Assembly: GCA_029887795.1 (NCBI GenBank)
Contig: JARXPE010000003.1
Location: 28,600-92,599, forward strand
Source: Thermoproteota archaeon
Lineage (GTDB): Archaea > Thermoproteota > Methanomethylicia > Methanomethylicales > Methanomethylicaceae
Reading direction: 5' to 3'
Length of the DNA: 64,000 nt
Part shown: positions 11,642-42,361 of the stretch, one piece after another
Layout of the letters: every line of letters starts with the position of its first letter
Position numbering within the stretch: the first letter of the stretch is position 1
Made by a program: the position numbers and the translations under genes
Notes under the pieces: model-generated
Told to the model about the DNA's origin: nothing
Database searches by the model: none
What the model saw: only the letters and a program-made list of their open reading frames with translations

Positions 11642-12151
11642 TCACCCAAGCTCAAATAGACTTACTTTGGACAAATCTGCATTTATAAAATATTTGAACT
11701 TAAAGGTCTCCTTCCATTCAGGTCTATCCATCACTCCTTGGAAGCAGACACCCACCACACTATCAAGTGTACTTACAACACTCAATTTTTGTTTTAAAGC
11801 ACTTGGGTTGATCTGTGATTTTGGCATTGCCAGCCCGCCCAACAACACAACGATCTGAAAATCTTTTTCAACGACGCACTCACCTGGAGAGTACCCGAGA
11901 CCTTTCCTGTCGACCAACTCAACGATTTTTTCCGTCTCACCATTTGGAGAGAAATAAGTTCTTATTGGCATATCTCTTATGCTGTAGGTCAAAAATTCAG
12001 CGAAAGGCAGGCAGGTGTAGGGTGTCCCTACAAAAAGTAGACTTCCACTTTTGTTTAATTTTACTATGGCACTCCTAAAGCATCTACTCAGGCCTACAAG
12101 ACCTTTTTCTACCATCGTCTCCGTCTCCAACGTTCCCCCTCCTTGTATCAT
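11642..12151 (-). CDS. Hypothetical protein
   Basis: 169-aa ORF; start uncertain (internal Met MVEKGL possible). Confidence 0.35.
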   Translation of the reverse strand: MIQGGGTLETETMVEKGLVGLSRCFRSAIVKLNKSGSLLFVGTPYTCLPFAEFLTYSIRDMPIRTYFSPNGETEKIVELVDRKGLGYSPGECVVEKDFQIVVLLGGLAMPKSQINPSALKQKLSVVSTLDSVVGVCFQGVMDRPEWKETFKFKYFINADLSKVSLFELG

Positions 12152-12307
12152 AATACTAGATTGCTTAGGTATTATTAGTTAAATCACTTATGATATTCAT
12201 TTCTACATCTCTACATACCATTATTTTTTGTTAACTTTTTTTACCAAAAATGCAAAGACAAATTCCTCTTACTAGTGGAAGTCTCAAGATTTTATTTTTA
12301 CCGCCTT

Positions 12308-12664
12308 CTATTCCACTCTTCTTTCAACAACTATTCTACAACGCGTTACCAAGGCGGCAATAACTCCCAGAGCTGCCAGCCATGGTGCGAGTATGGCCCC
12401 TACAATTCCTACTGTAGCAGGTATTTCTAGGAGCGTCTTTCCTCCCTCATCCTTAACAATTATCCTTGTGACGTTGCCCTCATGTATTAGCTCTTCTACT
12501 CTTTTTATCAGCTCGTTGGCCGCTATTGAGAACTCTTCGGTAATTCTTCTTTCCAGTTTAGTTCCGCAGGCTGGGCAATATTTTGCATCCTGGGCTACTG
12601 GGGTCCCACAATTTTGGCAGTACGGCATAACCCTCGCCTGATCAATAACTCTACAGCCTGACAC
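12308..12664 (-). CDS. Zinc-ribbon protein with C-terminal DUF4342-like hydrophobic domain
   Basis: CQNCG....CPACG zinc ribbon, followed by a ...RIIVKDEGGKTLLEIPATVGIVGAILAPWLAALGVIAAL segment. Confidence 0.5.
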   Translation of the reverse strand: MSGCRVIDQARVMPYCQNCGTPVAQDAKYCPACGTKLERRITEEFSIAANELIKRVEELIHEGNVTRIIVKDEGGKTLLEIPATVGIVGAILAPWLAALGVIAALVTRCRIVVERRVE

Positions 12665-12714
12665 TTAATCTTTACCAACCGAAAAAGACAATATCTTGGA
12701 GCATATAAAACAGA

Positions 12715-13359
12715 ATGGGGAACGAATTGACGAGACTGAAAACACTTCTAACAGAACTCTCACGATACGAAATTCCAAAGGGTCCGTCCCCTGCTTTTAC
12801 CCCCGTCCATATTGTTAAGGCACTCCTCTTATTGGAGAAAGGCAGTATGGGTCGCCAATCAATGTCAAAAATGCTTGGTCTTGGAGAAGGATCAGCCCGA
12901 ACGCTTGTTAAAAAACTCACAGAGCGTGCGCTGGTCTCCGTCGACCCCGTCGGGGGCTGCAATTTGACGAATGAAGGAAGGCTTATAGTAAATGAACTTC
13001 GCCAGACAATTTTATCCTCAAAAGAGTTTACTTTAGAAGATTTTGATATAAAACTCCCCTCTTTCGCAGTTCAGATCAGGGGTCCGTCCGCATTTACTAT
13101 TCCGATCACAAAGCTCAGGGATGTTGCAGTCAGGAACGGGGCAGAGGGCATGTTGGTGTTCACTGTCAAGGACTCGAAGATATCGCTTCCGATGATAGTG
13201 GACGACGTCTCAAAAGACTATCCCAAGCTTGTATCACTGATTAAAAACTCCTTCTTGCTGGAGGATGGAGATTTCATATTCATAGGGTTCGCAGAAGACA
13301 AAAATGCTGCGGAACTTGGAACGCTTGCGGCTGCTTTATTCTGCATCCTTGAATCTTGA
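12715..13359 (+). CDS. DUF4443-like archaeal protein (putative winged-helix regulator) linked to the ABC transporter
   Basis: 214 aa; N-terminal helical/wHTH-like region. Family assignment is from memory, not from a search. Confidence 0.4.
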   Translation: MGNELTRLKTLLTELSRYEIPKGPSPAFTPVHIVKALLLLEKGSMGRQSMSKMLGLGEGSARTLVKKLTERALVSVDPVGGCNLTNEGRLIVNELRQTILSSKEFTLEDFDIKLPSFAVQIRGPSAFTIPITKLRDVAVRNGAEGMLVFTVKDSKISLPMIVDDVSKDYPKLVSLIKNSFLLEDGDFIFIGFAEDKNAAELGTLAAALFCILES

Positions 13360-13444
13360 TTTTCTTCACTCAAATCCTCAAAGATTTTTGGCGAAAATTA
13401 TAAATTTATGACACATTAAGACATTTTTGAGGGAGGTTATTGTC

Positions 13445-14428
13445 ATGAAAAAAAGTATTATAGTACTATCAATTATCCTTATTGTAGCTTTTGGTACTGT
13501 GGCGGGACTGTACGGAACTGGGTTCCTCTCGCCCGCACCAAAAGTAAAGGTCCGTATAGGTTATCTTACAGGAGACTTACACCATCTGGCTCTTCATGTC
13601 GCAGTTGCGAGAAATTATTTTGCGCAGTACGGCCTTGAATATGAATTATATGAGTACATAAACGGACCAACCCTAATGCAGCATTTTGTGGTCGGGGAGC
13701 TTGATTTTGCATATGTTGGCACCCCTCCAGCATTGACGGCAAGGGCCAGCGGAATATCCTCCAATGCAACACACCTGCCCGTCGTAATAGGTTCTGGGAA
13801 TTTAGAGGGGTCTGCCTTGGTGGTGAACCCTGCCATTATTAAGAATGTAGGCGACCTAGAAAACAAAAAAATTGGGACGCCTGGCACAGGAACAATTCAA
13901 GACGTCCTAATCTCAACCTACGCAAAGAACAATAACCTAACAATCACAAAATATCCTGGGCGGATCTCCGATCTGCCGCTGCAGTATGGAAGGGGCGAGA
14001 TCGACGGATTTATTGGTTGGGAGCCCTACCCCTCGATTGCCGCTTATCAATACAACGCATCAATACTGCTCACCTCCCATGAAATCATGCCAAATCACCA
14101 ATGCTGTGTTCTTGTGGTCTCTGACAAGTTCCTCGCAGCACATCCCGAAATAGTGGATAAAATGGTCGCAATACACAAGGCTTCAATTGACTTTATCAAC
14201 ACCAACCCTGCCGAGGCTAAACAGCTCGCGATGAACATCACCAAACTACCAATGCCCGTGATAGAGCTTGCATTCTCACACATGTCCTTCTCAAAATCAG
14301 TAAACGTTGAGAGCATTAGAGCCTTCCTAGTCGACATGATAAGGCTCGGCATAATCAAAAATATAGATGTAAATCAGGTGGATAACTTCATAAACGGCTT
14401 TATAAATACCAAATACGTTGCTGGTTAA
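13445..14428 (+). CDS. ABC transporter substrate-binding protein, NitT/TauT (SsuA/NMT1-like) family
   Basis: Signal/anchor helix followed by an SsuA-like periplasmic-binding fold. ATG at 13445 sits behind a GAGGGAGG ribosome-binding site. Confidence 0.8.
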   Translation: MKKSIIVLSIILIVAFGTVAGLYGTGFLSPAPKVKVRIGYLTGDLHHLALHVAVARNYFAQYGLEYELYEYINGPTLMQHFVVGELDFAYVGTPPALTARASGISSNATHLPVVIGSGNLEGSALVVNPAIIKNVGDLENKKIGTPGTGTIQDVLISTYAKNNNLTITKYPGRISDLPLQYGRGEIDGFIGWEPYPSIAAYQYNASILLTSHEIMPNHQCCVLVVSDKFLAAHPEIVDKMVAIHKASIDFINTNPAEAKQLAMNITKLPMPVIELAFSHMSFSKSVNVESIRAFLVDMIRLGIIKNIDVNQVDNFINGFINTKYVAG

Positions 14429-14439
14429 ATGTGATCCCA

Positions 14440-15225
14440 ATGAAAAAACAATATCGGCGCCTGCGGTCTTTGCTCTATGCATTATCATCAGTTATCATAT
14501 TCTTTATTTTTTGGGAACTGATAGCCCTCTATTCTCCGTCTCCCTATCTTCCAGATCCTTACTCGGTTCTGAGGGCTTTCATCACAATCCTGACAGTTGG
14601 AGATGTTGACGGCTATACACTTACTTGGCATGCAGTTGTGAGTCTTGAGCGTGTCTTGCTAGGATTCGCTGTTGGCACTGCAACAGGCATTCCTATTGGA
14701 ATGCTACTGGGGATAAAACCCACACTAAAGGGCGCAGTAACGCCCATCATCGAGCCGCTCCGATTCATTCCACCAATAGCGTGGATCCCGCTTTCGATCG
14801 TTCTACTCATAGGCTTGTGGAGATATATCTTTTTAATATGGATCGGGGTTTTCTTTCCCGTACTATTGGATACCATAGCCGGTGTAAAAAGAACCTCAAT
14901 AACACTGATACAGATGGCGAGGACATTTGGAGCGGACAATAAAAAAATCATCACAAAGATCGTATTTCCGAGCTCCCTTCCTGAGATCATGAACGGGCTT
15001 AGGGTGGGTCTTGGGGTCGGCTGGATGTGCATAGTGGCTGCTGAGATGATAGGCGGCGAGCCTGTTGGTCTCGGAAGGCTGATCCTAAAATATGCAAACC
15101 TGCTCCAAATTGATGTGGTAATAGTGGGCATGATAACAATTGGTCTGATAGGTCTCGCGCTGAATTATCTCATTCTACTATTAGAGAAGAGGATGTTTAG
15201 GTGGAGGGTTGAGATTAGGGCGTAG
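14440..15225 (+). CDS. ABC transporter permease, NitT/TauT (SsuC-like) family
   Basis: Six transmembrane segments and an EAA-like loop; immediately follows the binding protein. Confidence 0.8.
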   Translation: MKKQYRRLRSLLYALSSVIIFFIFWELIALYSPSPYLPDPYSVLRAFITILTVGDVDGYTLTWHAVVSLERVLLGFAVGTATGIPIGMLLGIKPTLKGAVTPIIEPLRFIPPIAWIPLSIVLLIGLWRYIFLIWIGVFFPVLLDTIAGVKRTSITLIQMARTFGADNKKIITKIVFPSSLPEIMNGLRVGLGVGWMCIVAAEMIGGEPVGLGRLILKYANLLQIDVVIVGMITIGLIGLALNYLILLLEKRMFRWRVEIRA

Positions 15226-15996
15226 GTGTGCACATTGAAAAAAGCGATCTTGCTCGAATCGGTATCAAAAAAATACGAGGTCGGCTCCAGTTCCCTAGAA
15301 GTTATTAAAGACCTCACATTTGACGTAAACGAAAATGAATTTGTCTGCATCGTCGGACCATCGGGCTGTGGTAAGACCACGCTGCTCAGAATCGTCTCGG
15401 GGCTTGAACCTCCCTCTTCTGGCAGGGTTCTCGTTTTTGACACCCCTCCAGACCCCAGAAGGCAGAAGTTCGGTGTGATCTTCCAAGAAGACTCTTTGCT
15501 TCCATGGAGGACTGTTCTTGGGAACGTCAAATTTGGGCTAGAGCTTCAGGGCTATAAAGAGACTGAACATGAAAAGATCGCCAGAACTTATATCGAGTTG
15601 GTGGGTCTGCAGGGGTTTGAAAACTACTACCCGCACCAAATATCGGGTGGTATGAAGAAGAGGGTTGCAATAGCTAGGGCTCTAGCTATAAACCCTGATC
15701 TCATACTTATGGATGAGCCCTTTGCGGATCTAGATGCACAGACGAGGTCTCTCATGCAAAGGGAGCTACTGAATGTATGGTCAAAACTAAATAAGACTGT
15801 CCTGTTTATAACTCACAATGTCGAGGAAGCGGTCTTTCTTGCTCAAAGAGTCTTTGTTCTGACCAAGCGCCCCTCGAAGGTTAAGCAAATAATCAACATC
15901 GATCTTCCCTATCCAAGAGCTAGGCTTAGCCCTCCCTTCATATCATACCGTGAGCGCATATTGACCGCCTTCCATGAGGAATTGGAGGGTATCTGA
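15226..15996 (+). CDS. ABC transporter ATP-binding protein, NitT/TauT (SsuB-like) family
   Basis: Walker [10 protein letters not shown], signature LSGGMKKRVAIARAL, Walker B LILMDEPF; GTG start abuts the permease stop. Confidence 0.85.
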   Translation: MCTLKKAILLESVSKKYEVGSSSLEVIKDLTFDVNENEFVCIVGPSGCGKTTLLRIVSGLEPPSSGRVLVFDTPPDPRRQKFGVIFQEDSLLPWRTVLGNVKFGLELQGYKETEHEKIARTYIELVGLQGFENYYPHQISGGMKKRVAIARALAINPDLILMDEPFADLDAQTRSLMQRELLNVWSKLNKTVLFITHNVEEAVFLAQRVFVLTKRPSKVKQIINIDLPYPRARLSPPFISYRERILTAFHEELEGI

Positions 15997-15997
15997 A

Positions 15998-16546
15998 ATG
16001 GAAAAAGATAAAGATCTAACTATTCGTGACGAGCTGATAAATGCTGCTTTGACTTCCAACGAAGCGTTCTCGTCAACCCTTAAATCTATAATGCGGCGTA
16101 TGGATATCACTGCTAAGGATCTGAGTGAAGGCTCTGGCGTCCCCCTCAGCACCATAAATAAGATACTTTCTGAATGCAGAGACCTCCGCCTATCAACACT
16201 CAGAGATATTCTGAGATATCTCCATTCTCTTGAAACACCTCCTGCAGACATTATTATAGGAGTAATCGCTGCAAGGCCGTCTCTCGACGCGATTTCCAAG
16301 CATCAGCTATTGGCAAAAGGTAAACGCGTGATAATAAAAGAATACCCTGCCTTAACAATAGAAGATGCCATCATAAGCGCGATTAAGGCAGAGCGAGAGC
16401 ATGTGAACGGTCTAGTCTGCGCCTCTATAGTAGCCAGTATAATAGAAAAGTTTGTGCGAATCCCAATCGCCACAATAAAGGTCGAGGAATCAAACATTTT
16501 AGACTCCGTACACCTACTTGTGGAAAAAATAACCTCTACAAGCTAG
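15998..16546 (+). CDS. XRE-family helix-turn-helix transcriptional regulator with an uncharacterised C-terminal domain
   Basis: HTH segment ITAKDLSEGSGVPLSTINKILSECRDLRLSTLRDILRYL. ATG at 15998 behind GGAGGG; the track's ATG at 15974 lies inside the ABC ATPase gene. Confidence 0.55.
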   Translation: MEKDKDLTIRDELINAALTSNEAFSSTLKSIMRRMDITAKDLSEGSGVPLSTINKILSECRDLRLSTLRDILRYLHSLETPPADIIIGVIAARPSLDAISKHQLLAKGKRVIIKEYPALTIEDAIISAIKAEREHVNGLVCASIVASIIEKFVRIPIATIKVEESNILDSVHLLVEKITSTS

Positions 16547-16589
16547 TCTCTAGTCTATAAATCTTTTTTATTAATTATTAATAAAAAAT

Positions 16590-16660
16590 AAAAATATAAA
16601 GTCTCAAAATTACTTTAATATAATTTATTTTAATTTCAGGATTGAGGGCAAGATTTTTAA
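16590..16660 (+). promoter_or_regulatory. Candidate archaeal BRE/TATA promoter of the mcrBGA operon
   Basis: Very AT-rich 160-bp spacer with TATA-like boxes (aaaaatataaag, ctttaatataattta) 50-110 nt upstream of the mcrB ATG. GAGAGG ribosome-binding site at 16695-16700. Confidence 0.3.
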
Positions 16661-16707
16661 CCTCCAGTTATCTATTCTCACGTAAGAAATCTACAGAGAG
16701 GAGTTTT

Positions 16708-18042
16708 ATGCCAAAATATCCGGACAAAGTGAACTTGTACGACGACCGCGGAAAACTTTTTGAGACAAACGTTCCAGTTGAGGCTCTGAGCCCACTGAAA
16801 AACACTGCTATACAAAAAATCATCGCTTACGTAAAGCAATGCGTTGCGGTTAACTTGGAAGGTGTGGAAAAGGCGCTAGCTACAGGAGAAGTCGGCGGAA
16901 AATGGTGCATCATTAGAGGTAGATCTTTGAAACTCGATCTGGTAAAGAACGCAGGCAGCGTGGCGGACTCTTTGAAGAAGTGCTTGCAAGTAGATCCCGA
17001 TGACGACACAGAAGTAAAGGTTCTAAAGGGTGGAAAGCACCTCCTCGTAAAGGTTCCAGCAAAGAGGTTAAACGCTGGAGTTGAGTACACTACCGGAGCA
17101 ACAGCAGTGGCTGCTGCCCTCTGCTGCACAATAATTGAGAACTTTAATGTGAACATATGGGATGCAGACCTAGTACACGCTGCCGTCTGGGGAAGGTATC
17201 CGCAGACCATGGAGATGCTGGGTGGAAATGTGTCTTCACTATTGGCAGTGCCACAACAAAATGAGGGTATGGGCTACGCCCTTAGGAACATACCATGTGC
17301 ACACATCGCTCTCATCGCAAAGAAGAACGCTATGAATGCTGCCGCCCTCTCATCGATCTTGGAACAGACTGCGATGTTCGAGATGGGTGATGCCATTGGT
17401 AGCTTCGAGAGGTTCCACCTCTTGGGTCTAGCCTACCAGGGATTGAATGCTGACAACATAGTCTACGACCTTGTGAAAGAGAATGCAAAAACTGGAACAC
17501 TCGGAGATGTTGTCATTTCAACAGTGAAGAGAGCCCTATCGGATGGTGTCATCAAACCCTTAAAGAAGACACCGTCTGGATACACGCTCTACACCACAAG
17601 CGATCTCAATAAGTGGAATGCCTATGCTGCTGCAGGTCTATTGGCTGGAACAATGATCACTTGCGGTGCTGCCAGATCTATGCAACACGCTCCATCAGTC
17701 TTCATATACTTTAACGACCTTTTGGAGAGGGAGACTGGACTTCCAGGTGTGGACTTTGGTAGAGTCACAGGTACAGGCGTGGAAATGTCATTCTTCAGTC
17801 ACTCAATCTATGGTGGAGGAAATCCTGCCGTATTCCACGGAAACCACATAGTGACTCGACACAGCAAGGGCTTCACCATTCCATGCGTTGCTGCTGCCGT
17901 GGCGCTTGATGCTGGAACCACCATATACACCCCAGAGAGGATCAGCGGCGTAGTTGGTGAGGTCCTGAGCGAGGTACCTGAGCTTAGAGAATCTTTACGC
18001 TATGTGAATGAGGCCGCGGTCTCAATAAAAGGAGGAGTCTAA
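16708..18042 (+). CDS. mcrB: Methyl-coenzyme M reductase beta subunit
   Basis: [15 protein letters not shown]..., ...ALRNI..., [49 protein letters not shown] are hallmark McrB blocks. Start at the ATG at 16708 behind a ribosome-binding site; the track start at 16642 is an over-extension. Confidence 0.95.
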
Positions 18043-18044: not shown

Positions 18045-18821
18045 ATGGTAGAATATAAGCCCCAATATTACCCTGGAGGATCAAATGTAGCCGCCAATAG
18101 GCGGAAATACATCGATCCCAACTACAAGCTAAGAAAGCTAAGAACAATAAGCGACGATGACTTAGTTCGATTAATGGGTCATAGGGTCCCAGGCGAGGCT
18201 TACAAGAGCGTCCACCCGCCACTGGAAGAACTTGGCGAGCCTACATGCCCAATCAGGGAGATTGTAGAACCTACGCCCGGGGCAAAAGCCGGTGACAGGA
18301 TTCGTTACATACAATTCACAGACTCTGTATACTTTGCCCCATTGACTCCCTACATGAGAGCTTGGATGGGTCATATGCGATACCGTGGAGTGGACATTGG
18401 TGTTCTATCGGGGCGTGTCCCTCTTGAGGCCAGAGAGCGAGATCTTGAGAAGGTTGCTAAGGAACTCGTTGAGACCGAGATCTTCGATCCGGCGAGGGTC
18501 GGGATCAGGGGTGCCACAGTTCACGGTCATGCTTTGAGGCTCGACGAGAACGGTCTCATGTTCGATGCCCTGCGCAGGTTCCAGTATGATAAGAACAAGG
18601 GCGAGGTCGTCTATGTTAAGGACCAGGTTGGAGTTCCGCTCGACAGACCGATATACGTAGGAAAACCCACCCCTGAAGAGGAGCTGAGAAAAATAACCAG
18701 CCAGTTCAGAGTTGACGGAGAAGCCTTCAGGAATGACAAGGAACTGATTGAGTTCGTTCAGAGGATTCACATGCTCCGAACGGAAGCAGGTTTCGATCCT
18801 AACAAGGTGAAAGATCTATAG
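18045..18821 (+). CDS. mcrG: Methyl-coenzyme M reductase gamma subunit
   Basis: [55 protein letters not shown] are McrG blocks; starts 2 nt after the mcrB stop. Confidence 0.95.
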
Positions 18822-18832: not shown

Positions 18833-20503
18833 ATGAGCGAAGAGAAGAAGATGTTCCTAGAAGCGCTCAGGAGAAAGTTCAAGGAGTCTCCTGAAGAGAA
18901 ACAAACAAAATTCTACATATATGACGGATGGAAGCAGTCAAAGAGAAAGAGGGAGTTCGTAGAAGCTGCTCAGAAAATAGCCAAAGAGAGGACCGTCCCC
19001 TTCTACAACCCTGACCTCCACCTCGGCGGCATCCCATTAGGGCAGAGAGTCTTGATGCCTTACCGTCTATCGGGTACAGACATCTATTGCGAGGGTGATG
19101 ACCTTCACTTCATAAACAACGCCGCCATGCAGCAGATGTGGCATGACATAAGGCGGACTGTGATCGTCGGACTCGATGCTGCGCACACGGTCCTACAGAA
19201 GAGGCTCGGCAAAGAGGTCACCCCTGAAACCGTGAACCACTATCTAGAGGTACTTAATCACGCGCTGCCTGGTGCGGCTGTAGTTCAGGAGCACATGGTC
19301 GAGACACACCCTGGATTGGTCTCTGACAGCTATGTCAAGGTATTCACAGGAGACGACGAGCTCGCGGACGAGATCGACGATAGATTTCTTATCGACATAA
19401 ACAAGGAGTTCCCTGCAGAGCACGCGGCACAGCTAAAGGCTGCCATCGGAAAACGCATTTACCAGGTATGCCGCATGCCAACACTCGTGGCGATGACCTG
19501 CGACGGAGGTACAATGTCAAGATGGGCGGCTATGCAGATCTCAATGTCAATGATAAATGCATACAAACTTATGGCTGGAGAGGCTGCGGTGGGAGAATTC
19601 GCCTTCGCAGCAAAGCACGCAGAAGTCATAGAGATGGGCACTCTTATGCCTTGGAGGCGAGCAAGAGGTCCCAACGAGCCCGGAGGAATTCCATTGGGCT
19701 ATATGGCGGATATCTGCCAGGCCTCGAGGGTCAAGCCCGAGGATCCAGTCTGGGTCGCCTTGGAAGCCATTTCCATGGCAGCTGTCCTATACGACCAGTT
19801 CTGGTTCGGAAGCTACATGTCTGGTGGCGTCGGGTTCACGCAATATGCAACTTGCACCTACACTGACAACATCCTTGATGACTTCTGCTATTATGGCGCC
19901 GAGTACGTTAAAAAGAAGTACGGCGGTTTCGCAAAAGTCAAGCCGAGCTGGGATGTGATAAACGATGTTGCCACGGAGGTCACATTATACGGTCTGGAGC
20001 AATATGAAAGGTACCCTGCGCTGATGGAGACTCACTTCGGAGGATCCCAGAGGGCTGCCGTAGTAGCAGCTGGTGCTGGCGTCTCCGTGTCACTGGTGAC
20101 CGGTCATTCCACTGCAGGAATCAACGGTTGGTACCTCAGCCAGCTACTCCACAAGGAAGAGATGGGTCGACTTGGCTTCTACGGCTACGACTGCCAGGAC
20201 CAATGCGGATCAGCCAACAGCTTCTCATGGAGGAGCGACGAAGGTCTACCCTTCAACCTGAGGGGAGTGAACTACCCCAACTATGCTCTCAATGTCGGAC
20301 ACCAGTCAGCATACTGCGGTATAGTCTCCGCCGCTCACGGTGGGAGAGGCGACGCTTGGACAACAAACCCGTTGATAAAAGTTGCCTTTGCAGATAAGGA
20401 TCTGAAATTTGACTTCACGCACCCGAGGCTATGCTTCGGAAAAGGCGCTCTCAGGGAGTTCATGCCAGCTGGCGAGCGCGATCTAATAATCCCAAGCCAC
20501 TAA
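18833..20503 (+). CDS. mcrA: Methyl-coenzyme M reductase alpha subunit
   Basis: [73 protein letters not shown] are McrA blocks. GGAGG ribosome-binding site precedes the ATG. Confidence 0.95.
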
Positions 20504-20531: not shown

Positions 20532-21119
20532 ATGACCGGATATTCATCGCTTAAGAGAATTTTTGAAATTATTGTCGACCTATCCAATTTAACGCCAGAG
20601 CTTGCCAAAGAAAAGTACTCTGAATTTCCATCACTTGCGAGTCATATTGCAATTTTATTTTCAAGAGACTATTTACACGATGTATTATCAAGGTTGGAAC
20701 TTCAACTGAGAATTGTGGAGAGCTATGATCCGCCCATCAGACCTGCGCTGGATCCTTACTCTTCTACACAACTTGGCATCTTCAGCAAGAACTTCTCTGA
20801 CTGGGAAATTGGACGCCTACTCAATTATCCAGCGTGCTGCATCGATTCGTTTTCCGAAGAACTCCGTTATGGATTAGACTCGAAACATTTAGAGGAACTG
20901 AACACTATAAAAGAAGAGGTTGTATTCGTCACAACTGCGGGATTTGTGCCCCACAGCATATTTTGTAAAGAAGCGTCAGAGAGCGCACTTATTGGCCTCC
21001 TGAAGTTAGACGCGTTGAAAGTATTAAATGATCTGGAGAAGGAGCTTGCACGCAGGCTCCCTCATGCTCACCCGGAATACCAAAAACACTATTATGACAT
21101 GCTAATCCCAGATGTCTAA
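20532..21119 (+). CDS. Conserved archaeal protein with a YPACCIDSF Cys-pair motif (DUF483-like, tentative); probable fourth gene of the mcr operon
   Basis: 195 aa, same strand, 28 nt after the mcrA stop. Family name is from memory only. Confidence 0.45.
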   Translation: MTGYSSLKRIFEIIVDLSNLTPELAKEKYSEFPSLASHIAILFSRDYLHDVLSRLELQLRIVESYDPPIRPALDPYSSTQLGIFSKNFSDWEIGRLLNYPACCIDSFSEELRYGLDSKHLEELNTIKEEVVFVTTAGFVPHSIFCKEASESALIGLLKLDALKVLNDLEKELARRLPHAHPEYQKHYYDMLIPDV

Positions 21120-21171
21120 ATAAAGGTCAGAAATTAAATTGAATGAACATACAAAAAAAGAATTTTAAAAC

Positions 21172-21945
21172 TCAAGATCGAGTAGCTTGCATTCTCCTAA
21201 TTTCCGATATTATTTTGGGTATATCTCTGAGAGAACTAACAATATAATCCACTTCAGGCATTAGATCTTCCGACGCGTCGCAAGACTCTCTTTTTACAAG
21301 CACAGAGAGGTCCGCTTCCCTCATAGCTAGGAGGTCGTTAACATCATTTCCCACCATTACCACAAGTCCATAAAATCTTCTGAGACTCTTTACAAAATTC
21401 ATCTTTTCTTTGGGTGACGCATCGGCAAGAACAAACCTCTTGTCTATCCCTAAAAACTTGGCGCACTTCAAGGTTGCCTCTCGACAGTTTCCTGTGGCAA
21501 GGAATACGTCATCGTCAGAATCTCTGAGCTTCTTAATGACTTCTTTAACATCATCGTAAAGTTTCCCTCCCAAACCCACAGCATGTGTTGGGGTCCCGTC
21601 TTTATTCAGTATTACCGCTGCACATGTACCAATCTCTGAACCACAGTGAGTTTTCGCCTCAAATATTACCCTGTTTAATGCTTCTAAAATGTCATTTTGC
21701 CTCAAGATCTCATCGCTGACCTTTGGGGAAGTCGGCAAGGGTGAACAAATTACCTTTCCGATCTTAATGTTTTTTTGTTTTTTTGCGTTCGGGTCGCCCT
21801 TCACATTCACGAGGTAGCCACCAATCTCTATAACAAATTTCAAAGTATTTACATGGAAAAGAAGTTCCTTTCTTTGAAGATCATATATTACTCTACAAGG
21901 CCTTAGTATAGTTCCCGATTTGTCAAATACTATTGCTGCCCTCAA
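21172..21945 (-). CDS. HAD-superfamily hydrolase resembling the catalytic domain of P-type ATPases (soluble P-type ATPase-like phosphatase)
   Basis: Motif I FDKSGT; motif VMVGNDVNDLLAMREADLSV equivalent to the P-type ATPase GDGxNDxP hinge. Confidence 0.65.
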   Translation of the reverse strand: MRAAIVFDKSGTILRPCRVIYDLQRKELLFHVNTLKFVIEIGGYLVNVKGDPNAKKQKNIKIGKVICSPLPTSPKVSDEILRQNDILEALNRVIFEAKTHCGSEIGTCAAVILNKDGTPTHAVGLGGKLYDDVKEVIKKLRDSDDDVFLATGNCREATLKCAKFLGIDKRFVLADASPKEKMNFVKSLRRFYGLVVMVGNDVNDLLAMREADLSVLVKRESCDASEDLMPEVDYIVSSLRDIPKIISEIRRMQATRS

Positions 21946-21958
21946 AAGTTAGCCCTCT

Positions 21959-22270
21959 TCATCCAGCACCGCACACGTTCCCACTGGTATCTATTTTGCC
22001 CTCGTCTCTGATTTCAGGTGTTTCGGATTTCTCTTTTTCAACCTCTTTTATTTTCTCTTGTTCCACTTCTTTTTCCATCTCTTGCCTAGGCTCTTTTACA
22101 AAATCCTCTTCAACCGTTTCTAGAAAGTCCTCATCGTAAAATAGTCCTGTTGAATCCAACTTAGCCCAGACTTTGCCATCCATTTCTCTCAATTCAACAA
22201 TTCTGCCGAGGGTACCAGTCCTTTTGTATATAACTGATGCCCCTTCCCTGAGCACACTTTGCCCCTCCAC
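21959..22270 (-). CDS. Small protein with an acidic EKE-rich tail (KOW-like N-terminus), hypothetical
   Basis: 103 aa; N-terminal beta-rich ...GTLGRIVELREMDGKVWAKLDSTGLFYDEDFLE, then a low-complexity acidic C-terminus. Confidence 0.35.
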   Translation of the reverse strand: MEGQSVLREGASVIYKRTGTLGRIVELREMDGKVWAKLDSTGLFYDEDFLETVEEDFVKEPRQEMEKEVEQEKIKEVEKEKSETPEIRDEGKIDTSGNVCGAG

Positions 22271-22325
22271 AAATATTTAATAAATTCTTATGCATTTTCT
22301 TTCCTATTAATCTGAGGGGTCCCAC

Positions 22326-23255
22326 TTGGAAGACCTTAAAGAGATTGTGAGCAAGACAAGATCGTACAAAGGGCTATCAAGAAAGGCCCAGATTGGGGAG
22401 ATTGTTAATATACTTGGCGAGGTTGACTATGACGACGCTGGAATATTGAATGTGGAAGGACTCAATATTGTGGTTTCTACAGACGGCATAGCAGAGGATC
22501 TAGTCAAGTCTGATCCTTGGTTTGCTGGGTATTATTCTGTCCTTGTTAATGTCAATGATGTGGTGATAAAGGGTGCTAGACCTCTTGGATATGTGAACGT
22601 TATATCTGGACCTAGAGAGATTAGGAACAAGATGGCAGAAGGCATAAAGGCTGGACTTGAAAAGTACAACGTCAAACTGCTCAAGGGTCATACACATCCG
22701 GACTCTTCATACGCGGCAATTGACGCCGCGGTGGTTGGAATAGCAAAAAAGGTCGTAAGGGGAACCGACGCCCGTCCTGGCGACGAAATTGTGATGGCCA
22801 TCGACCTTTCAGGATCGTTTGGTCTAAAGGGCTGGGTTAAATGCTTTGATAGTACAGTTAAAAAGTCATCTAAACAAGTTCAAGATATGATCTCTGCCAT
22901 AATCTCTGTCATAGAAACTGGAAAAGTGCATTGTTCTAGGGACATAAGTGCCCCTGGAATATTAGGAAGTCTGGCAATGTTATGTGAGGCTAGTGGTGTT
23001 GGAGCAGAAGTCTCTCTGGACAAGATCCCTGCCCCAAAAGGCTCTTCGCTTTCTGAGTGGTTGACTTCATACCCTGCAATGGGATTTATATTTGGCTCCT
23101 CTACTTCCAATGTCTTTGAGACCTTGAAGAATTCTGGTTTCTCTGTGGAATCTGTAGGTCGCTTCACAGCCGACAAAAAAATAATCGTGTCTATGGATCA
23201 TAAAAAAGAAATCTTCATGGATCTAGCGAGGGAGTCTGTCTTCGGATTGAGATAG
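22326..23255 (+). CDS. AIR-synthase-related (PurM/HypE/ThiL-like) protein; candidate methanogenesis marker protein 2
   Basis: VVSTDGIAEDL and downstream glycine-rich segments characteristic of the PurM-like N and C domains; TTG start; lies in the MCR island. Confidence 0.55.
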   Translation: MEDLKEIVSKTRSYKGLSRKAQIGEIVNILGEVDYDDAGILNVEGLNIVVSTDGIAEDLVKSDPWFAGYYSVLVNVNDVVIKGARPLGYVNVISGPREIRNKMAEGIKAGLEKYNVKLLKGHTHPDSSYAAIDAAVVGIAKKVVRGTDARPGDEIVMAIDLSGSFGLKGWVKCFDSTVKKSSKQVQDMISAIISVIETGKVHCSRDISAPGILGSLAMLCEASGVGAEVSLDKIPAPKGSSLSEWLTSYPAMGFIFGSSTSNVFETLKNSGFSVESVGRFTADKKIIVSMDHKKEIFMDLARESVFGLR

Positions 23256-24851
23256 TTCCGCGATCTCCTCTGGGGAGAAGGAGTTCACGACTTCACATAC
23301 GGGGCCCCTCATTGCTATCTTCCCGTCTCTGAGCAGTAGCGCTTCGTCACAGGTATTCATGACAAACCCCATATCGTGCGAGACTATTAAAAAAGTCTGC
23401 CGGAGCTCGTGCCTTGCATTCTTTATTGATTTGGAAACATCCTGCTGCGTTATTGGATCCATTGTGCCGGTAGGCTCGTCTAATATTACTAGGATCGGCT
23501 CTCTTATTAGGACTTGGGCAAGCGCGACCCTATGCCTCTCGCCCTCGCTCAACTCATCAGGGTACTTATTCAAAATAGGCTCTATCAGACTTTCTTGGAA
23601 ACCAGCCGCTCTCAAGACCATGGCTGCCTTGAATTTGGCAAATTCGTCTGGCAATTCAAGCCCGATGGCATCAGTAAGGTTCTCTTGCACAGTCCTGTGT
23701 GGATAAAGCGAGTACTCTTGGTGAAGCAAACCGATGTATGGCGTCGCTCTGCCGCGCCCCATAGGCCCTGGTTGTAACATGTCCACCCATTCATCACCTA
23801 TCCTCAGCCAGACCCTGCCAGATGTCGGTTCCGTAAGACCTGCAATGATCCTCGAAAGCGTCGTCTTCCCTGCCCCACTCATCCCTACAATGCCAAATAT
23901 CTGCCCCTCCCTAACCTCAAAGGAGACGTCATCTAGCGCTCTAACAACCCCTTTGTCTATGGAGAAGTAATGCTTCTTCAGCCCCTCTACCCTGAGTATT
24001 GTATCTCCCGCCTCTGCGGGCACCTCTTTTGATATGGTTTCTGCCTCTGATAGGAACTCCCTCACGATTTCCTTCGGGTCTCCTATGACCTTCACACTTC
24101 CGTTCTCTAACAGTATTGCCCTCTCACTCAAAGCTTCTACTGCCTCGGGCAGGTGTGATGTGACCAGCATGGTTATGTTTTTACCCTTGACCTCTTCGTT
24201 CAATATCCTGTATACCATCCTTGCACTCAGCGGATCGAGCGTCCCCGTGGGTTCGTCTGCCAGCAACAGTATGGGTCTTATTGCCAACTGCCTGCCTAGT
24301 ACGACCCTCTGCTTCTCACCACCACTGAGATCCCTCGCCGCATGGAGTAGCCTATGTTCCAGGCCCATCCTCTTGGCAAGCTCGAGCGCCTTGCGCCCAA
24401 CATCGGCATTCTCGAGTTCAGCTTTCTCTAACGCCTCAACAAAATTCTCGTACACGGTGAGGCTGCCGTAAAGAGCAAAGGTTCTTTGAAACATTATTGC
24501 TATCCTATTTTTAATGTCTTTGGCTGACTCCCTATCCTCCCAGAAGTCTACCTCAATAAGTTCCATCTTTCCACAACATCTAGGACAAACCTTCCCTGCC
24601 CTGCTAGGCCCCTCAACGAAGCCACATTCCTTGCATGATGCTACTCGGTATATCACTTTACCTGCCGTGGGAGCATATTCTCCAATCCCTTTAAGCATTG
24701 AGAGAAGCACACTCTTACCAGAACCGCTCTTCCCAAGAATCCCGACTCTTTCGCCTTCGCGAATTACTAGTGACACATCCTTGAGAACGTAATGCCCGTT
24801 AAACTTTTTGGAAACGCCATCTACGATGATCAATGCCTCCCTCATCGTCAT
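23223..24851 (-). CDS. atwA: MCR system component A2 (AtwA-like): soluble tandem ABC ATPase with a Zn-ribbon insert
   Basis: Two full ABC cassettes (GKSGSGKS/LSGGEKQRV/LLLADEPT and GMSGAGKTT/LSEGERHRVALAQVL/ILDEPTG) with no transmembrane domain. CKECG...CPRCCG insert in cassette 1. Next to ycaO-tfuA. Confidence 0.7.
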   Translation of the reverse strand: MTMREALIIVDGVSKKFNGHYVLKDVSLVIREGERVGILGKSGSGKSVLLSMLKGIGEYAPTAGKVIYRVASCKECGFVEGPSRAGKVCPRCCGKMELIEVDFWEDRESAKDIKNRIAIMFQRTFALYGSLTVYENFVEALEKAELENADVGRKALELAKRMGLEHRLLHAARDLSGGEKQRVVLGRQLAIRPILLLADEPTGTLDPLSARMVYRILNEEVKGKNITMLVTSHLPEAVEALSERAILLENGSVKVIGDPKEIVREFLSEAETISKEVPAEAGDTILRVEGLKKHYFSIDKGVVRALDDVSFEVREGQIFGIVGMSGAGKTTLSRIIAGLTEPTSGRVWLRIGDEWVDMLQPGPMGRGRATPYIGLLHQEYSLYPHRTVQENLTDAIGLELPDEFAKFKAAMVLRAAGFQESLIEPILNKYPDELSEGERHRVALAQVLIREPILVILDEPTGTMDPITQQDVSKSIKNARHELRQTFLIVSHDMGFVMNTCDEALLLRDGKIAMRGPVCEVVNSFSPEEIAELSQSEDRLPR

Positions 24852-24892
24852 GCACCAAAGAACACGATTATTAATGAGATGTGATATTTAAG

Positions 24893-25552
24893 TCATACAC
24901 TCCTATTGATTGTCGTCAGTTCTCTGATCTTCTTTAAAACTTCAATCGCATCAATCCGCTTTTGATCGACTCTCTCTCTTTTCAACAATTCTAGAATGAA
25001 CTTTGCCCTTTCTCTGCCTAATTTGTCTATGGCATTCTGAATTATCCTACTGTAATTTCTGAGGTGAAAGGGGGTCTCCTTAGCACTCTCTATTATGATC
25101 TCTCCGTCCGCCTTACTGATCATGCCTCTTGATATCAGTAGCTCCAAAGTAGCTCTTATATTGACCAAAGGCTCGGAGAGTGGTTGATATGTGTTTGGAT
25201 GGAATACAACCGCCACTTCGTCATCAGCGCTAATAACACCTTGTTTATACCATCTGTAAATCTTCCCGACTCCGATCATGCCGTAGAGATCCAACTCGCA
25301 AGCCCTCAGAGCTCCTATACTAGATCCGCCGACCACCTTTACTCCCTTTTTAAGGGCATAAAGTATCTCACGATGCGAAACTGCTGTTTTCTGGTAGAAG
25401 ACGCCATCCACAAGCCCTATTATCTCGAACCCCTCATCAACAGCTCCCGCCACATCTCCCCTCCCAGCAGGTGGCCTGTACTCAACATCGTCCAAAATTT
25501 TTTCCGCCTCTTCTACAGGCAGACTTGGTCCTAAAAACACAACAACTTTCAT
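24893..25552 (-). CDS. tfuA: TfuA-like protein (partner of YcaO for McrA thioglycine formation)
   Basis: MKVVVFLGPSLPVEEAE...PPAGRGDV...GSSIGALRA is the TfuA signature. Start moved to the ATG at 25552 (GAAGGT ribosome-binding site), 25 nt after the ycaO stop; the track start at 25618 overlaps ycaO. Confidence 0.8.
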   Translation of the reverse strand: MKVVVFLGPSLPVEEAEKILDDVEYRPPAGRGDVAGAVDEGFEIIGLVDGVFYQKTAVSHREILYALKKGVKVVGGSSIGALRACELDLYGMIGVGKIYRWYKQGVISADDEVAVVFHPNTYQPLSEPLVNIRATLELLISRGMISKADGEIIIESAKETPFHLRNYSRIIQNAIDKLGRERAKFILELLKRERVDQKRIDAIEVLKKIRELTTINRSV

Positions 25553-25577
25553 AACCTTCTTCACACTTTCGATTTTT

Positions 25578-26783
25578 TCAACATTGACTTTTCTTGATCT
25601 TTTGGAGCGCCCTAGCACCTATTCTGTCTTTGTCCAGTGCATAAACCTCTAAACCTGGGACTATGACCCGCACGGCGGGAATGTTGACTTCATTTCTCGT
25701 CAAATCCACAATTATGACCTCGTTCAACCCCGCCTTTTTAAGCTTATTTATGATGTGGTTTATGTCCTCCAAAACATCATCACTATCATAGCCTTCAAGT
25801 TCGCTTATGCTTACCCGATCACCGGAACCCTCAAACCACTTCTTATTCAACCTCTTCATGCGCTCATATCCTATCCTTCTCGCAAAAACTGCCTTGTAGG
25901 TGTCCTCCCTAGTCCCATGAATCGTTGTAAGCCTGCTCTGGGCAGCCTCAGTCAGCGCCCTAACCAGGGCGATCTCTGGCACAAGGTGCGTCCCAACTCC
26001 AAGCGAAAGAAGCGCTGGATCTTTAGTCATCTCATCATCTATCGCAACCGATATTGTGGGTATCCCTATGTCTGATGTTATGTCTTTTATATAGACTTGC
26101 ACCGAAGCCTCCCTGAATCTTCTTATAAGTTCCTCTGCCAAGTCACAACCCTCGACCAACAAATCTCTACCCTTAGTAACTCCCAACTCAAATAGAGACC
26201 AAGCATCCCTCTCTATGACCTCCAAGAGCCCATGCAGAATGGCTTCCTCTATCTCATTCCCTACTGCCAATCCATTGGTATTGGTTCTGAAGAGCTGGTT
26301 TTCCCCCCTGTAGGGATGGAATACTGCCTCTGCTGGAACTAGGACTGCTTTCCCATGAGTCAGCGAGTGCCCATGTACCCACTCAAGATTTTCACTATGA
26401 GAATAGCGCCTTAGTTTAGGAAGATTCAGGGCAAATGGATCGAGCACGCAGTATGACTCGGATAGTGATTCATAACTGCCTTTTATTATTCCAATTTCTC
26501 TTGGCTCTCCTGAGAACCTTTCTATTCCCTCCATTATCGCCGAGATCTTTGCCTCCTCGGGAACATGACCCTTACCGGTGTATACTGTTATCGCACCTTC
26601 TGCAGCAAGGGGTCGCATTGCCGTGAAAACTGGTATCCCTATCCTGTCCAGTCCTGTTATGTCCGCCACTCTAGTTATTCCCGCCTTACTGTAAACTTTT
26701 TCTAGCAGCTCTAAAGTTTCCATCAGAGGCTTAGCTCGATGGGTGCCCTCTTTGTGACGCTTTTTTATGGAACGAAGTATCAT
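25578..26783 (-). CDS. ycaO: YcaO-domain protein (methanogenesis marker 1; McrA glycine thioamidation)
   Basis: ITRVADITGLDRIGIPVF and downstream ATP-binding YcaO blocks; 401 aa; directly upstream of tfuA. Confidence 0.85.
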   Translation of the reverse strand: MILRSIKKRHKEGTHRAKPLMETLELLEKVYSKAGITRVADITGLDRIGIPVFTAMRPLAAEGAITVYTGKGHVPEEAKISAIMEGIERFSGEPREIGIIKGSYESLSESYCVLDPFALNLPKLRRYSHSENLEWVHGHSLTHGKAVLVPAEAVFHPYRGENQLFRTNTNGLAVGNEIEEAILHGLLEVIERDAWSLFELGVTKGRDLLVEGCDLAEELIRRFREASVQVYIKDITSDIGIPTISVAIDDEMTKDPALLSLGVGTHLVPEIALVRALTEAAQSRLTTIHGTREDTYKAVFARRIGYERMKRLNKKWFEGSGDRVSISELEGYDSDDVLEDINHIINKLKKAGLNEVIIVDLTRNEVNIPAVRVIVPGLEVYALDKDRIGARALQKIKKSQC

Positions 26784-26892
26784 GAAATCACGCCCATCGA
26801 CATTTTTGCCTCTAATTGTATTTTTATAGGATTACCATCCGTATCAATATTAGTCCCATGACTACAAAATCATTTGCGAATGATCAGCGGGA

Positions 26893-29566: not shown

Positions 29567-30559
29567 TCATGTTAAAATATTCGCCTTCTTATGATTTCCC
29601 CCTTTTTTTAAAACACCAACCATTCTAGCAATCCTCACAACCCTATCAGCGAGCTTGCTAGCATTCTCCTCAAAGAGGTAAACGTTCGGTTCTATGCCGA
29701 ATCCTCCCTCATCCACGATCGCATCGAACCATCCCTCCCCCCTCTTTGCCAGCTCCTCTATGAACCTTATGAGCTCGTCCTCCCCTTCCTTATATGCAGG
29801 GTCTCTTTTGAGTGTGAAATACTTGAGATTCAATTTATTCAACACTGTCATAACGTCTGCATCATACTTTATGTTCATCGCCGACCTAATATTGGGATTG
29901 ACCCTCATGGCAGTAAGTAGGACTTTTCCAAGATGCCCCGAAACACCAAACTCAGGATCCATCAAAGATTTTGCCTTCCCTCTGAATCGAACAATTCTTC
30001 CGGGAACTCCAGCTACATCAGATATGGTCTTTGCCTCCTTTAGCGCCATCACAATGTTGGAAAAAACCTCCGGAAGCAACAATGTGAAATCTTGGCAGCT
30101 CTCTAAGGTATCTACTGCCAACCTAAGCTCGCTCAGGATCCTGCGCCTTAAATCCGATACATCCGCCAAACTCATATGGAGCTGCATGCAGATTGCACAT
30201 CTCTCTTCTTCAAGCTCATGAATCTTCATCTTGTGAGCGTGGCAGATCGTTCCACCTCTCCTAAGGCTCAGGCAGATCTTGCAAATGTGGTTTATCAGGT
30301 CGGTATAGGTCAACCTCTTCACGTTTATTTCTGAGGTTATGCTCTTTGCTAGGGCAGAGAGCTCTTCCACGCTGAATGGAGGCAAAATCACCTCTTTTTC
30401 ATCTTGTGCCAAGTATCCGCTCACTGCTGCCTGTGTGACCCCCAGTTTTCTTGCGATCCTTGTTTGCGTCCATCCATAGGTCTCTGACAACTCTTTTGCT
30501 ATTAAGACCCTTAGTGCTGGCAGGAGAACCCTAACTGTAATCTCGCAAGGCGGGTTCAA
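29567..30559 (-). CDS. thiR: ThiR-type regulator (N-terminal HTH fused to a ThiN thiamine-phosphate-synthase-like domain)
   Basis: HTH segment [20 protein letters not shown]; its C-terminal half is homologous to the ThiN part of the adjacent ThiDN (GVPGRI...FG.S.H...V). Confidence 0.6.
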
Positions 30560-30640
30560 AGCTCGCCCTCCATTATAAAGTAATTATTATAACCTTTATA
30601 TTGCATACTTATAAAAGTGATTAAAGATCTATTATAGTTT

Positions 30641-42360: not shown

Positions 42361-42361
42361 C

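Follow-up and report, generated by a model that had tools for sequence, protein, structure and literature searches.

What does a transporter encoded next to the genes of methyl-coenzyme M reductase (MCR) bring into the cell, and does its position say anything about its cargo? This question is raised by a stretch of 64,000 nucleotides from the genome of a Ca. Methanomethylicaceae archaeon (Verstraetearchaeota/Methanomethylicia), hereafter the window, in which three genes of a NitT/TauT-type ATP-binding cassette (ABC) transporter occupy positions 13445-15996 of the + strand. In the initial annotation, made from the letters of the sequence, they were regarded as a candidate uptake system for coenzyme M (CoM) or another sulfonate, functionally linked to the neighbouring mcrBGA. 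In our opinion, there is about an even chance that these genes, together with a gene for an XRE-like protein that follows them, form a type-I ABC importer that stands by itself, has its own regulation and takes up a small sulfur-bearing anion. If the cargo is indeed an organosulfur anion, CoM, CoM disulfide or a C2 sulfonate are the leading specific candidates, although tentative ones, and another organic sulfur source is about as likely. The features of the locus, all of them on the + strand, are as follows.

12715-13359, +: putative regulator with a winged helix-turn-helix (wHTH) domain (PH0730-like_N/CggR_N) and DUF4443 (Pfam DUF4443 67.9 bits, PH0730-like_N 33.8 bits).
13392-13436, +: elements read from the sequence, namely CGAAAA resembling a transcription factor B recognition element (BRE) at 13392-13397, TATA element TTATAAAT at 13398-13405 and Shine-Dalgarno (SD) sequence GAGGGAGG at 13429-13436.
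13445-14428, +: substrate-binding protein (SBP), 327 aa, membrane-anchored, NMT1/SsuA/TauA fold (Pfam NMT1_2, TIGR01728).
14431-15225, +: permease, BPD_transp_1 by family match (GTG at 14431; probable start ATG at 14440).
15226-15996, +: ABC ATPase, 256 aa (ABC_tran 111 bits).
15998-16546, +: XRE-like partner protein, 182 aa (HTH_26, HTH_3; the open reading frame opens at 15974).
16547-16707, +: AT-rich spacer of 161 nt with a T-run at 16563-16572, the predicted mcrBGA promoter GGGCAAGATTTTTAAC at 16646-16661 and SD sequence GAGAGGAG at 16696-16703.
16708-18042, +: mcrB (TIGR03257 659 bits, above the equivalog cut-off).
18045-18821, +: mcrG (TIGR03259 390 bits, above the equivalog cut-off).
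18833-20503, +: mcrA (TIGR03256 1005 bits, above the equivalog cut-off).

The open reading frames and family matches bear out the initial description of an SBP, a permease and an ATPase lying upstream of mcrBGA and co-directional with it, flanked by the wHTH/DUF4443 protein on one side and by an HTH_3/HTH_26 protein and mcrBGA on the other. The transporter frames are real genes and not chance ones, because an identical SBP (100% over 98% of the query) has been deposited from a Ca. Methanomethylicaceae metagenome-assembled genome (MAG), together with dozens of orthologues of 50-87% identity. The SBP, whose N-terminal membrane anchor spans residues 1-29, matches NMT1_2 with 79 bits (cut-off 24.7) and TIGR01728 SsuA_fam with 123 bits (E 1e-35), and its homologues are named 'NitT/TauT family' by JGI. 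The permease combines its BPD_transp_1 match with several hydrophobic segments and an EAA-type loop, ARTFGADNKKIITKIVFPSSLPEIMNGLRVGLG, and the ATPase retains undamaged Walker A, ISGGM signature, Walker B and H-loop motifs, ITHN among them. With a binding protein, an EAA-loop permease and an intact ATPase, the system is a binding-protein-dependent type I ABC importer and belongs to the NitT/TauT family (TC 3.A.1.16/17). SsuA is the nearest solved binding protein in sequence, and TauA is one of the top fold matches.

The nature of the ligand is best approached through the cleft of the SBP. The nearest solved proteins by sequence are SsuA of X. citri (E 1.5e-5) and of E. coli (2.4e-5), followed by Thi5. 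Cleft residues were mapped onto the published contacts of X. citri SsuA (PMC3839906) by sequence alignment, not by coordinates; Gly68, Gly86 and Trp185 of that protein are kept as Gly74, Gly92 and Trp192, and its Ser141 corresponds to Thr150, a position held by Thr or Ser in all 84 homologues. These 84 distinct SBPs, taken from Methanomethylicia, other archaea and two bacterial subgroups, share only ~33% overall identity, and yet Asp44, His46, Gly74, Met78, Gly92, Pro95, Asn119, Gly122, Ser123, Pro146, Gln152, Trp192, His218, Cys220 and Cys221 are invariant in all of them. In the topology of the predicted model the invariant residues point into the cleft from the ends of strands and the N-termini of helices, and the alignment of homologues yields a clade signature, D44-x-H46 ... 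H218-Q-C220-C221. Cys220-Cys221 form the end of hinge 2, where SsuA has Gly-Gly; the residues of TauA at or beside the same place, Leu204-Asp205, touch taurine at its non-sulfonate end (PMC6906117).

A working scheme may be drawn from these residues. The membrane-anchored SBP would serve a homodimeric permease and a homodimeric ATPase, and a protein with a helix-turn-helix (HTH) and a sensor domain would be co-translated with them. The cleft is predicted to offer an SsuA/TauA-type oxyanion site made of backbone and hydroxyl groups (Gly74, Gly92, Thr150), with Trp192 stacking on the ligand, and also a soft cluster of Asp44, His46, Met78, His218, Cys220 and Cys221. The anionic head of the ligand could thus sit at the helix-dipole site and its sulfur or thiophilic end at the His/Cys cluster, and a permease Cys would line the pore. 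The latter residue is Cys200 (numbered from the GTG at 14431), which lies in the motif GWMCIVAAEM of transmembrane helix 5 (TM5) and occurs in nearly all archaeal relatives and one bacterial subgroup; its place is taken by Thr in the other bacterial subgroup and by Ala in NrtB and CmpB.

The closest solved permease structures are NrtB (8W9M, E 5e-34) and CmpB (E 2e-30), and ntrB and ntrCD are among the NCBIfam matches of the transporter, as would be expected of an importer of nitrate, nitrite, bicarbonate or cyanate of the NrtABCD/CmpABCD type. However, the permease result is uninformative, because no SsuC or TauC structure is present among the permease matches in the PDB. A pocket of the NrtA/CmpA kind, which the initial annotation had named as an outcome that would speak against a sulfonate, is not what the SBP sequence indicates: among solved structures it has no NrtA or CmpA match at E<0.01. 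In addition, the SBP is ~100 residues shorter than those proteins, and the ATPase carries no extra or fused regulatory domain of the NrtC type. This reading is disfavoured, and we would leave it hardly any probability.

The AlphaFold model of the SBP (pLDDT 97.1) was compared with known structures by Foldseek. Matches to 3UN6, TauA, SsuA and Thi5 were obtained at E 5e-19 to 1e-16, with TM scores of 0.77-0.83 for TauA and SsuA, and CmpC-CRD, NrtA, ThiY and PqqT were further matches; all of them have 13-19% identity and similar E-values. An importer of a heterocyclic vitamin precursor (the thiamine pyrimidines HMP/FAMP, thiamine or another cofactor), comparable with ThiY, the C. difficile thiamine binder or PqqT, should therefore be considered, as Thi5, ThiY (3IX1), the thiamine-binding protein 4NMY and PqqT fall in the same Foldseek range of E-values. 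In the sequence alignment the CCCFC motif of Thi5 falls on the Cys-Cys pair, and ThiN and ThiDN genes lie 14 kb downstream. Nevertheless, the SBP sequence is closer to SsuA than to Thi5 and scores for SsuA_fam, not for ThiY-type models, and in 90 loci no consistent linkage to thiamine genes was seen, so that we consider a heterocyclic cargo very improbable.

Autonomy of the module is indicated by the fourth gene. The intervals between the SBP, permease, ATPase and XRE-like genes are only 2, 0 and 1 nt. The XRE-like gene probably starts at 15998 rather than at 15974, that is 1 nt 3' of the ATPase stop; judging by this spacing, it is translationally coupled to the ATPase gene and is the last gene of the transporter operon. 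Its product consists of an N-terminal HTH and a sensor-like alpha/beta domain of ~100 aa with an invariant Cys (residue 141 of the 182-aa form), and its model (pLDDT 79) has only weak fold matches of the LacI/PurR/PrpR_N kind. The family numbers ~926 members; the named ones among the best 120 of the 926 are all archaeal, and some are tagged PrpR_N.

Homologues of this protein (33-45% identity) adjoin the transporter, often divergently, in 10 of 15 archaeal species loci outside Methanomethylicia, and such a gene also stands next to the transporter in Bathyarchaeota BA2 and in an Aigarchaeote. The hosts of this combination are Hecatellales, Bathyarchaeia, a Nitrososphaeria-labelled MAG, other Thermoproteota (including isolate Kor3), Hadarchaeales and Baldrarchaeota, and no mcr is found nearby in these loci (L008, L033, L035, L038, L043, L046, L048, L049, L054, L055, L086, L096 and L097). 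The XRE-like gene belongs to the transporter and not to mcr, because it is coupled to the ATPase gene and travels with the transporter where mcr is absent. Its product would be the module's own ligand-responsive regulator. The DUF4443 gene, in turn, is kept 5' of the SBP gene in those Methanomethylicia loci that have sufficient upstream flank and was not found adjoining the transporter in lineages outside this class.

The signals around the operon agree with such a division. The 85-nt spacer 5' of the SBP gene holds the BRE/TATA and Shine-Dalgarno elements, TATA-like elements occur at the same place in orthologous spacers, and the elements at 13392-13436 may be taken as the archaeal promoter of the transporter operon. 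At the other end, a T-run at 16563-16572, a likely terminator, follows the stop of the XRE-like gene, and the predicted mcr promoter element GGGCAAGATTTTTAAC, of the BRE/TATA kind, lies ~45 nt 5' of the mcrB start. As to this start, the longest mcrB frame opens with TTG at 16642 and encodes 466 aa, while the conserved ATG at 16708, placed behind the strong SD GAGAGGAG, gives 444 aa as in relatives; the latter is probably the true start, and the 22 extra codons (16642-16707) overlap the predicted mcr promoter. In loci with a placeable mcrB start, the spacer between the XRE-like gene and mcrB is non-coding, AT-rich (63-81%) and 60-190 nt long (410 nt in one locus), and an element of the type GGCAAnnnTTTAAtA is kept in most of the spacers inspected. 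The transporter with its XRE-like gene would thus be one transcription unit and mcrBGA another, with read-through possible between them.

A shared operator of the two promoters was sought in ~14 of 21 orthologous spacer pairs and was rejected: there are two different conserved contexts and no common motif. In Methanosuratincola and Methanomethylicus a TTGTAyAC-like element precedes the SBP TATA; the window lacks it. A riboswitch or other RNA element 5' of the transporter or of mcr was also discarded, as a search of 12000-17000 against Rfam found nothing at E≤1.

How firmly is the transporter tied to mcr in evolution? One genome per species of the GTDB was scanned with an SBP profile, and the 79 loci obtained were compared with the window proteins by tblastn. 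Of the Methanomethylicia-type species loci, all those whose downstream flank reaches 3.5 kb or more (22/22) have the order ATPase, XRE-like gene, mcrB; mcr genes are missing from each of the 47 remaining loci whose flank is long enough. The linkage, the lack of which in relatives, together with a complete CoM pathway, would have counted against the initial proposal, is therefore conserved within the class. However, the same loci also keep CDC48, leuA, TBP, four POR genes, a hexapeptide transferase and DUF2124 upstream and DUF483, HAD, DUF2098, mmp2 and atwA downstream. Adjacency to mcr says little by itself, because a whole 20-kb block of unrelated genes is equally conserved, and the position of the transporter beside mcrBGA is inherited synteny of the class and not operonic coupling. 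A functional link between the placement of the transporter, the regulators around it and mcr, as initially proposed, is not borne out, given that the XRE-like gene goes with the transporter, the promoters are separate and the entire block is syntenic.

Some other features of the window may be mentioned here. The window is an MCR 'service island' with two such stretches: 20532-28149 comprises DUF483, DUF2098, mmp2 (22326-23255), atwA (A2), tfuA, ycaO and a BcrAD/BadFG-type ATPase, and 39146-45559 contains a short McrC-like protein along with a second A2-like double ABC ATPase, mcrC, DUF2113, DUF2102 and mmp3. The window frames scanned included no mcrD. Elsewhere, there are a RACo-type corrinoid activase (37255-39171), two ThiN-domain genes, one of them a ThiD-ThiN fusion (29567-32008), and a complete pstSCAB-phoU phosphate uptake operon (48177-52414) with a PhoU/MazE-like gene upstream. 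A 36-bp repeat occurs twice at 48058-48131, G+C falls to 35% around 46-48 kb, and a very long frame (>1413 aa) at 59759-64000 continues past the window end. Scans of the window for tRNAs and tandem repeats gave nothing relevant.

The conserved adjacency makes a dedicated CoM salvage system worth weighing, in which the organism would be unable to make CoM and the importer would supply it to MCR. This idea draws on the adjacency to mcrBGA in all 22 species, on the presence of CoM in the medium of M. petrocarbonis LWZ-6, which carries the same locus (L024), and on precedents among methanogens. CoM is a routine component of the LWZ-6 medium (PMC12244365), and natural CoM auxotrophs exist among methanogens (PMC10658910). 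In M. acetivorans ssuABC is treated as a CoM-specific ABC transporter, and ssuA and ssuC rise on CoM starvation (PMC12068725), so that the statement in the initial annotation that CoM uptake is poorly assigned genetically is outdated (see also PMC10658910). According to a review citing work on resistance to 2-bromoethanesulfonate (BES), almost all methanogens carry ssuABC (PMC10658910); the same source, citing Zhang et al. 2000, attributes BES sensitivity to M. acetivorans SsuABC.

Against salvage of this kind speak the separate promoters with no shared operator seen, the synteny of the entire neighbourhood, which makes the adjacency unspecific, and the occurrence of the module with an identical pocket in many organisms that do not use CoM. 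Growth factors of LWZ-6 were tested singly, and only yeast extract was reported as essential (PMC12244365), which suggests that this strain grows without added CoM and is not a strict CoM auxotroph. No CoM-biosynthesis genes are present in the 64-kb window, where a PALP protein at 34640-36004 was tried as a cysteate synthase and set aside as a TrpB-like enzyme; the CoM-pathway table of PMC12068725 has no Methanomethylicia entries in the accessible part of its supplements. Altogether, a dedicated CoM salvage system coupled to MCR appears rather unlikely.

Outside Methanomethylicia, the clade is wide. An SBP profile search gave 418 protein clusters at E≤1e-20, and a motif scan found relatives in at least 236 GTDB species, many of them without MCR. 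The hosts are anaerobes: besides Methanomethylicia, they include Bathyarchaeia, Hadarchaeales, Methylarchaeales, Aigarchaeota and Baldrarchaeota among archaea, and many Desulfobacterota plus Dehalococcoidia, Bacillota and Actinomycetota among bacteria. Two groups differ in the permease. Group 1, with the motif GWMC(200)IVAAEMIGGE, comprises nearly all archaea, the window included, and some Desulfobacterota; Group 2, with the motif GWMTLVAAEFTGVK, comprises most Desulfobacterota. An operon of 13 genes with a divergent sigma-54 activator surrounds the Group 1 transporter on Desulfobacterota-type contigs (L090:2665-16374, L092:2655-16354, also L068, L053 and L044). Its genes are as follows.

Genes 1-3: molybdenum (Mo) oxidoreductase (PhsA/Fdh-like), small Fe-S protein, COG2122/AbpE_bact.
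Next: HcyBio with an inserted ferredoxin domain, that is MMP16-type (TIGR03287 376 bits, cut-off 364).
Next: HdrD-like CCG protein, second HcyBio (COG1900), then SBP, permease and ATPases.
Next: MtaA-type URO-D (methylcobalamin:CoM methyltransferase model NF004889, 339 bits, cut-off 244).
End: corrinoid protein and second URO-D.

Some variants add an aldehyde dehydrogenase or a thiamine pyrophosphate (TPP) enzyme. MMP16/ComF makes CoM in methanogens (PMC12068725), and other enzyme types of the operon reduce the CoM heterodisulfide (HdrD) and methylate CoM (MtaA) in these organisms. The operon looks like an undescribed pathway for a thiol cofactor, a thioether or methionine. Group 1 transporters are also found in other CoM users, namely Methylarchaeales HK01M and H03B2 (L041, L045; PMC9478090), Bathyarchaeota BA2 (L096) and the Hadarchaeota WYZ-LMO6 (L052), which represents the only Acr-bearing Hadarchaeota family (PMC10811742). 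The bacterial operons and these CoM-using hosts give independent support to a thiol or organosulfur theme.

In Group 2 operons (L064:9905-15121 and at least 13 other Desulfobacterota loci: L058-L060, L069, L074-L076, L078-L081, L084 and L085) a fusion of MSMEG_0568 radical-SAM and MSMEG_0567 GNAT proteins is accompanied by an sll0787 AIR-synthase-like protein, which scores as well with methanogenesis marker 2 (295 bits) as with its own family. A link of this protein and mmp2 to the window system was set aside, being confined to the subgroup with Thr in the permease.

The same bacterial operons may be viewed differently, as surroundings of an importer of a non-sulfonate sulfur nutrient (thiosulfate, polysulfide, cysteine, homocysteine or methionine) that feeds sulfur incorporation of the COG1900/COG2122 type. 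Bacterial relatives lie amid COG2122, two HcyBio, the Mo-oxidoreductase and the corrinoid/URO-D set, which could make homocysteine and then methionine. The wide spread in anaerobes fits a general nutrient, and LWZ-6 needs yeast extract (PMC12244365). The conserved acidic residues Asp44, Glu121 and Asp153 might serve to bind an ammonium group, the role of Glu106 and Asp205 in TauA (PMC6906117). Acidic residues near the anion site, on the other hand, disfavour a dianion such as thiosulfate. The known binding proteins for thiosulfate (CysP) and methionine (MetQ) belong to other families. We consider this explanation unlikely. The import of a sulfur source, offered in the initial annotation as a fallback, fits the data at least as well as that of CoM.

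Several observations weigh against a small organosulfur anion as the cargo. The SBP remains below every curated cut-off (SsuA_fam 123 vs 163.5, TauA 25 (24.6) vs 304 and SaoX 81 vs 300 bits). Its fold, as modelled, does not separate SsuA/TauA from Thi5, ThiY, NrtA and PqqT and so does not identify the ligand. The side-chain sulfonate donor, Gln36 of X. citri SsuA (Gln30 of TauA), is lost and replaced by Leu41. The His2-Cys2-Met-Asp cluster would seem to suit a metal better than an organosulfonate. The invariant pocket is common to hosts without known use of CoM (Bathyarchaeia, Aigarchaeota, Dehalococcoidia, Desulfobacterota, Actinomycetota), the Group 1 bacterial operon can also be read as a system for homocysteine/methionine synthesis or as a demethylase system, and the Bathyarchaeia loci have housekeeping neighbours only. 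Finally, in an Aigarchaeote (L097:4299-8588) the module of XRE-like protein, SBP, permease and ATPase adjoins a Zip permease and a DtxR/Fe-dependent-repressor gene, which hints at a metal connection for some clade members.

The initial annotation is supported in part. By sequence alignment, the resemblance to an SsuA/TauA pocket extends to the backbone/hydroxyl site and the Trp, but not to the sulfonate Gln, replaced by Leu41, nor to the position of the Cys-Cys pair. The proposal of a CoM or sulfonate importer is favoured by relatives with MMP16/HdrD/MtaA-type operons and by other hosts with MCR or alkyl-coenzyme M reductase (ACR), and is weakened by the cut-offs missed, the lost Gln and the many hosts without CoM.

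The soft character of the pocket and the metal-related neighbours suggest one more explanation, according to which the system imports a thiophilic metal or an organometallic or metal-thiolate species (Ni, Co, Zn). An analogous cargo has been proposed for the selenocysteine-assisted organometallic (SAO) locus. MCR is a large nickel sink. The invariant His46, His218, Cys220, Cys221, Met78 and Asp44 together look like a site for a soft metal, the structure of 3UN6, the top neighbour by fold, contains zinc, and CbiQ and CbiO adjoin the transporter loci of Hadarchaeales, besides the Zip and DtxR-like neighbours in the Aigarchaeote. The best NCBIfam matches of all three subunits are SaoX, SaoP (166 bits vs a cut-off of 295) and SaoA (223 bits vs 360; TauB, at 219 bits, is also below its cut-off). 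A CC pair (224-225) is conserved in the cleft of SaoX, and the gate residue of SaoP is Sec or Cys (bioRxiv 10.1101/2022.07.06.499078). However, all Sao equivalog cut-offs are missed widely, other Sao genes are not present, the correspondence of Cys200 to the SaoP gate is position arithmetic only, and the substrate proposal for SAO is itself a conjecture. To our knowledge, no importer of the NitT/TauT type carries metals. A metal cargo is, in our estimation, quite improbable.

Returning to the reading that we prefer, a sulfur-bearing anion, a bolder version of it may be formulated, in which the whole Cys-lined clade consists of importers of CoM-type thiols or disulfides. The sulfur end would then bind at the His/Cys cluster, either to a metal held there in the manner of the MtaA-type zinc sites or in a thiol-disulfide exchange, and the Cys pair of the permease dimer would pass the thiol through the pore. 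Although this generalization is a long shot, it would mean that a CoM-like cofactor is synthesized, imported and methylated by some sulfate reducers, which would share a cofactor economy with MCR/ACR archaea.

The significance of the system depends on its cargo. If this is CoM or its precursor, an uptake route for CoM and for the inhibitor BES would be at hand in the only cultured class of non-euryarchaeal methanogens, which would be useful for cultivation and inhibition studies. If it is an ordinary sulfur nutrient, the result is a routine annotation, with the caution that, where synteny is as strong as in this lineage, a conserved place beside mcr is no evidence of function. In either case, the work defines a widespread transporter clade confined to anaerobes, with an invariant His/Cys/Met pocket and, in archaea, a dedicated putative regulator, and draws attention to an operon of Desulfobacterota, so far undescribed, in which homologues of four enzyme types acting on CoM in methanogens come together.

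It remains to compare the window system with known ones. With SsuABC (E. coli; X. citri SsuA; 2X26, 3E4R, 3KSX) it shares the three-component architecture, a TM score of ~0.8 and equivalents of Gly68, Gly86, Ser141 and Trp185 (PMC3839906). It differs in the low identity of the SBP (17-19%), the score below the SsuA_fam cut-off, Leu in place of Gln36, Cys-Cys in place of the pocket Gly-Gly, the added invariant Asp-x-His, Met and His, the membrane anchor of the SBP and the XRE-like protein encoded in the operon. The SBP of one bacterial clade member (L064) scores 185 bits and passes the 163.5 cut-off of SsuA_fam, whereas that of the window does not. No FMN-dependent monooxygenase or reductase of the ssuD/ssuE kind was noticed among the annotated neighbours in the window and related loci.

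TauABC, represented by E. coli TauA (6SSY/6ST0), is one of the top three structural matches (E 9e-18); its hinge Glu106 corresponds to Glu121, the backbone sulfonate site is kept, the Thr/Ser equivalent is present, and Cys-Cys falls at or beside TauA Leu204-Asp205 (PMC6906117). Unlike TauA, the window SBP reaches only 25 of the 304 bits of the equivalog and does not conserve Gln30 and Asp205, and no tauD accompanies it. As for NrtABCD and CmpABCD, the family is common and their permeases are the closest solved ones, but NrtA and CmpA rank 26-36 structurally, below TauA and SsuA, and are the longer proteins mentioned above; NrtB and CmpB have Ala against Cys200, and a regulatory domain is missing from the window ATPase.

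The SAO locus of Clostridioides difficile and other anaerobes resembles the window system in the best NCBIfam matches of the three subunits, in the nearly identical position of the CC pair (220-221 vs 224-225 in SaoX), in hosts restricted to anaerobes and in having Cys or Sec where the permease lines the pore, with Cys200 equated to SaoP Sec210 and MetI Met163 by position arithmetic only. The scores (81 vs 300, 166 vs 295 and 223 vs 360) and the lack of selenocysteine in the window system set them apart, and none of SaoL (MerB-like), SaoB, SaoT, SaoC, SaoD and SaoE is found among the window genes or the neighbours in relatives. The substrate of SAO is itself only conjectured (bioRxiv 10.1101/2022.07.06.499078).

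With M. acetivorans SsuABC, compared by description and not by sequence, the window system has in common the NitT/TauT 'ssuABC' annotation and a methanogen host; the M. acetivorans transporter is not reported beside mcr, and there are no Methanosarcina proteins among the SBP matches listed. The idea of a CoM importer of the NitT/TauT type is thus already known from M. acetivorans, whereas the pocket lined with Cys, His and Met, the Cys of the permease, the dedicated XRE-like partner and the fixed position beside mcrBGA in one class set the present system apart.

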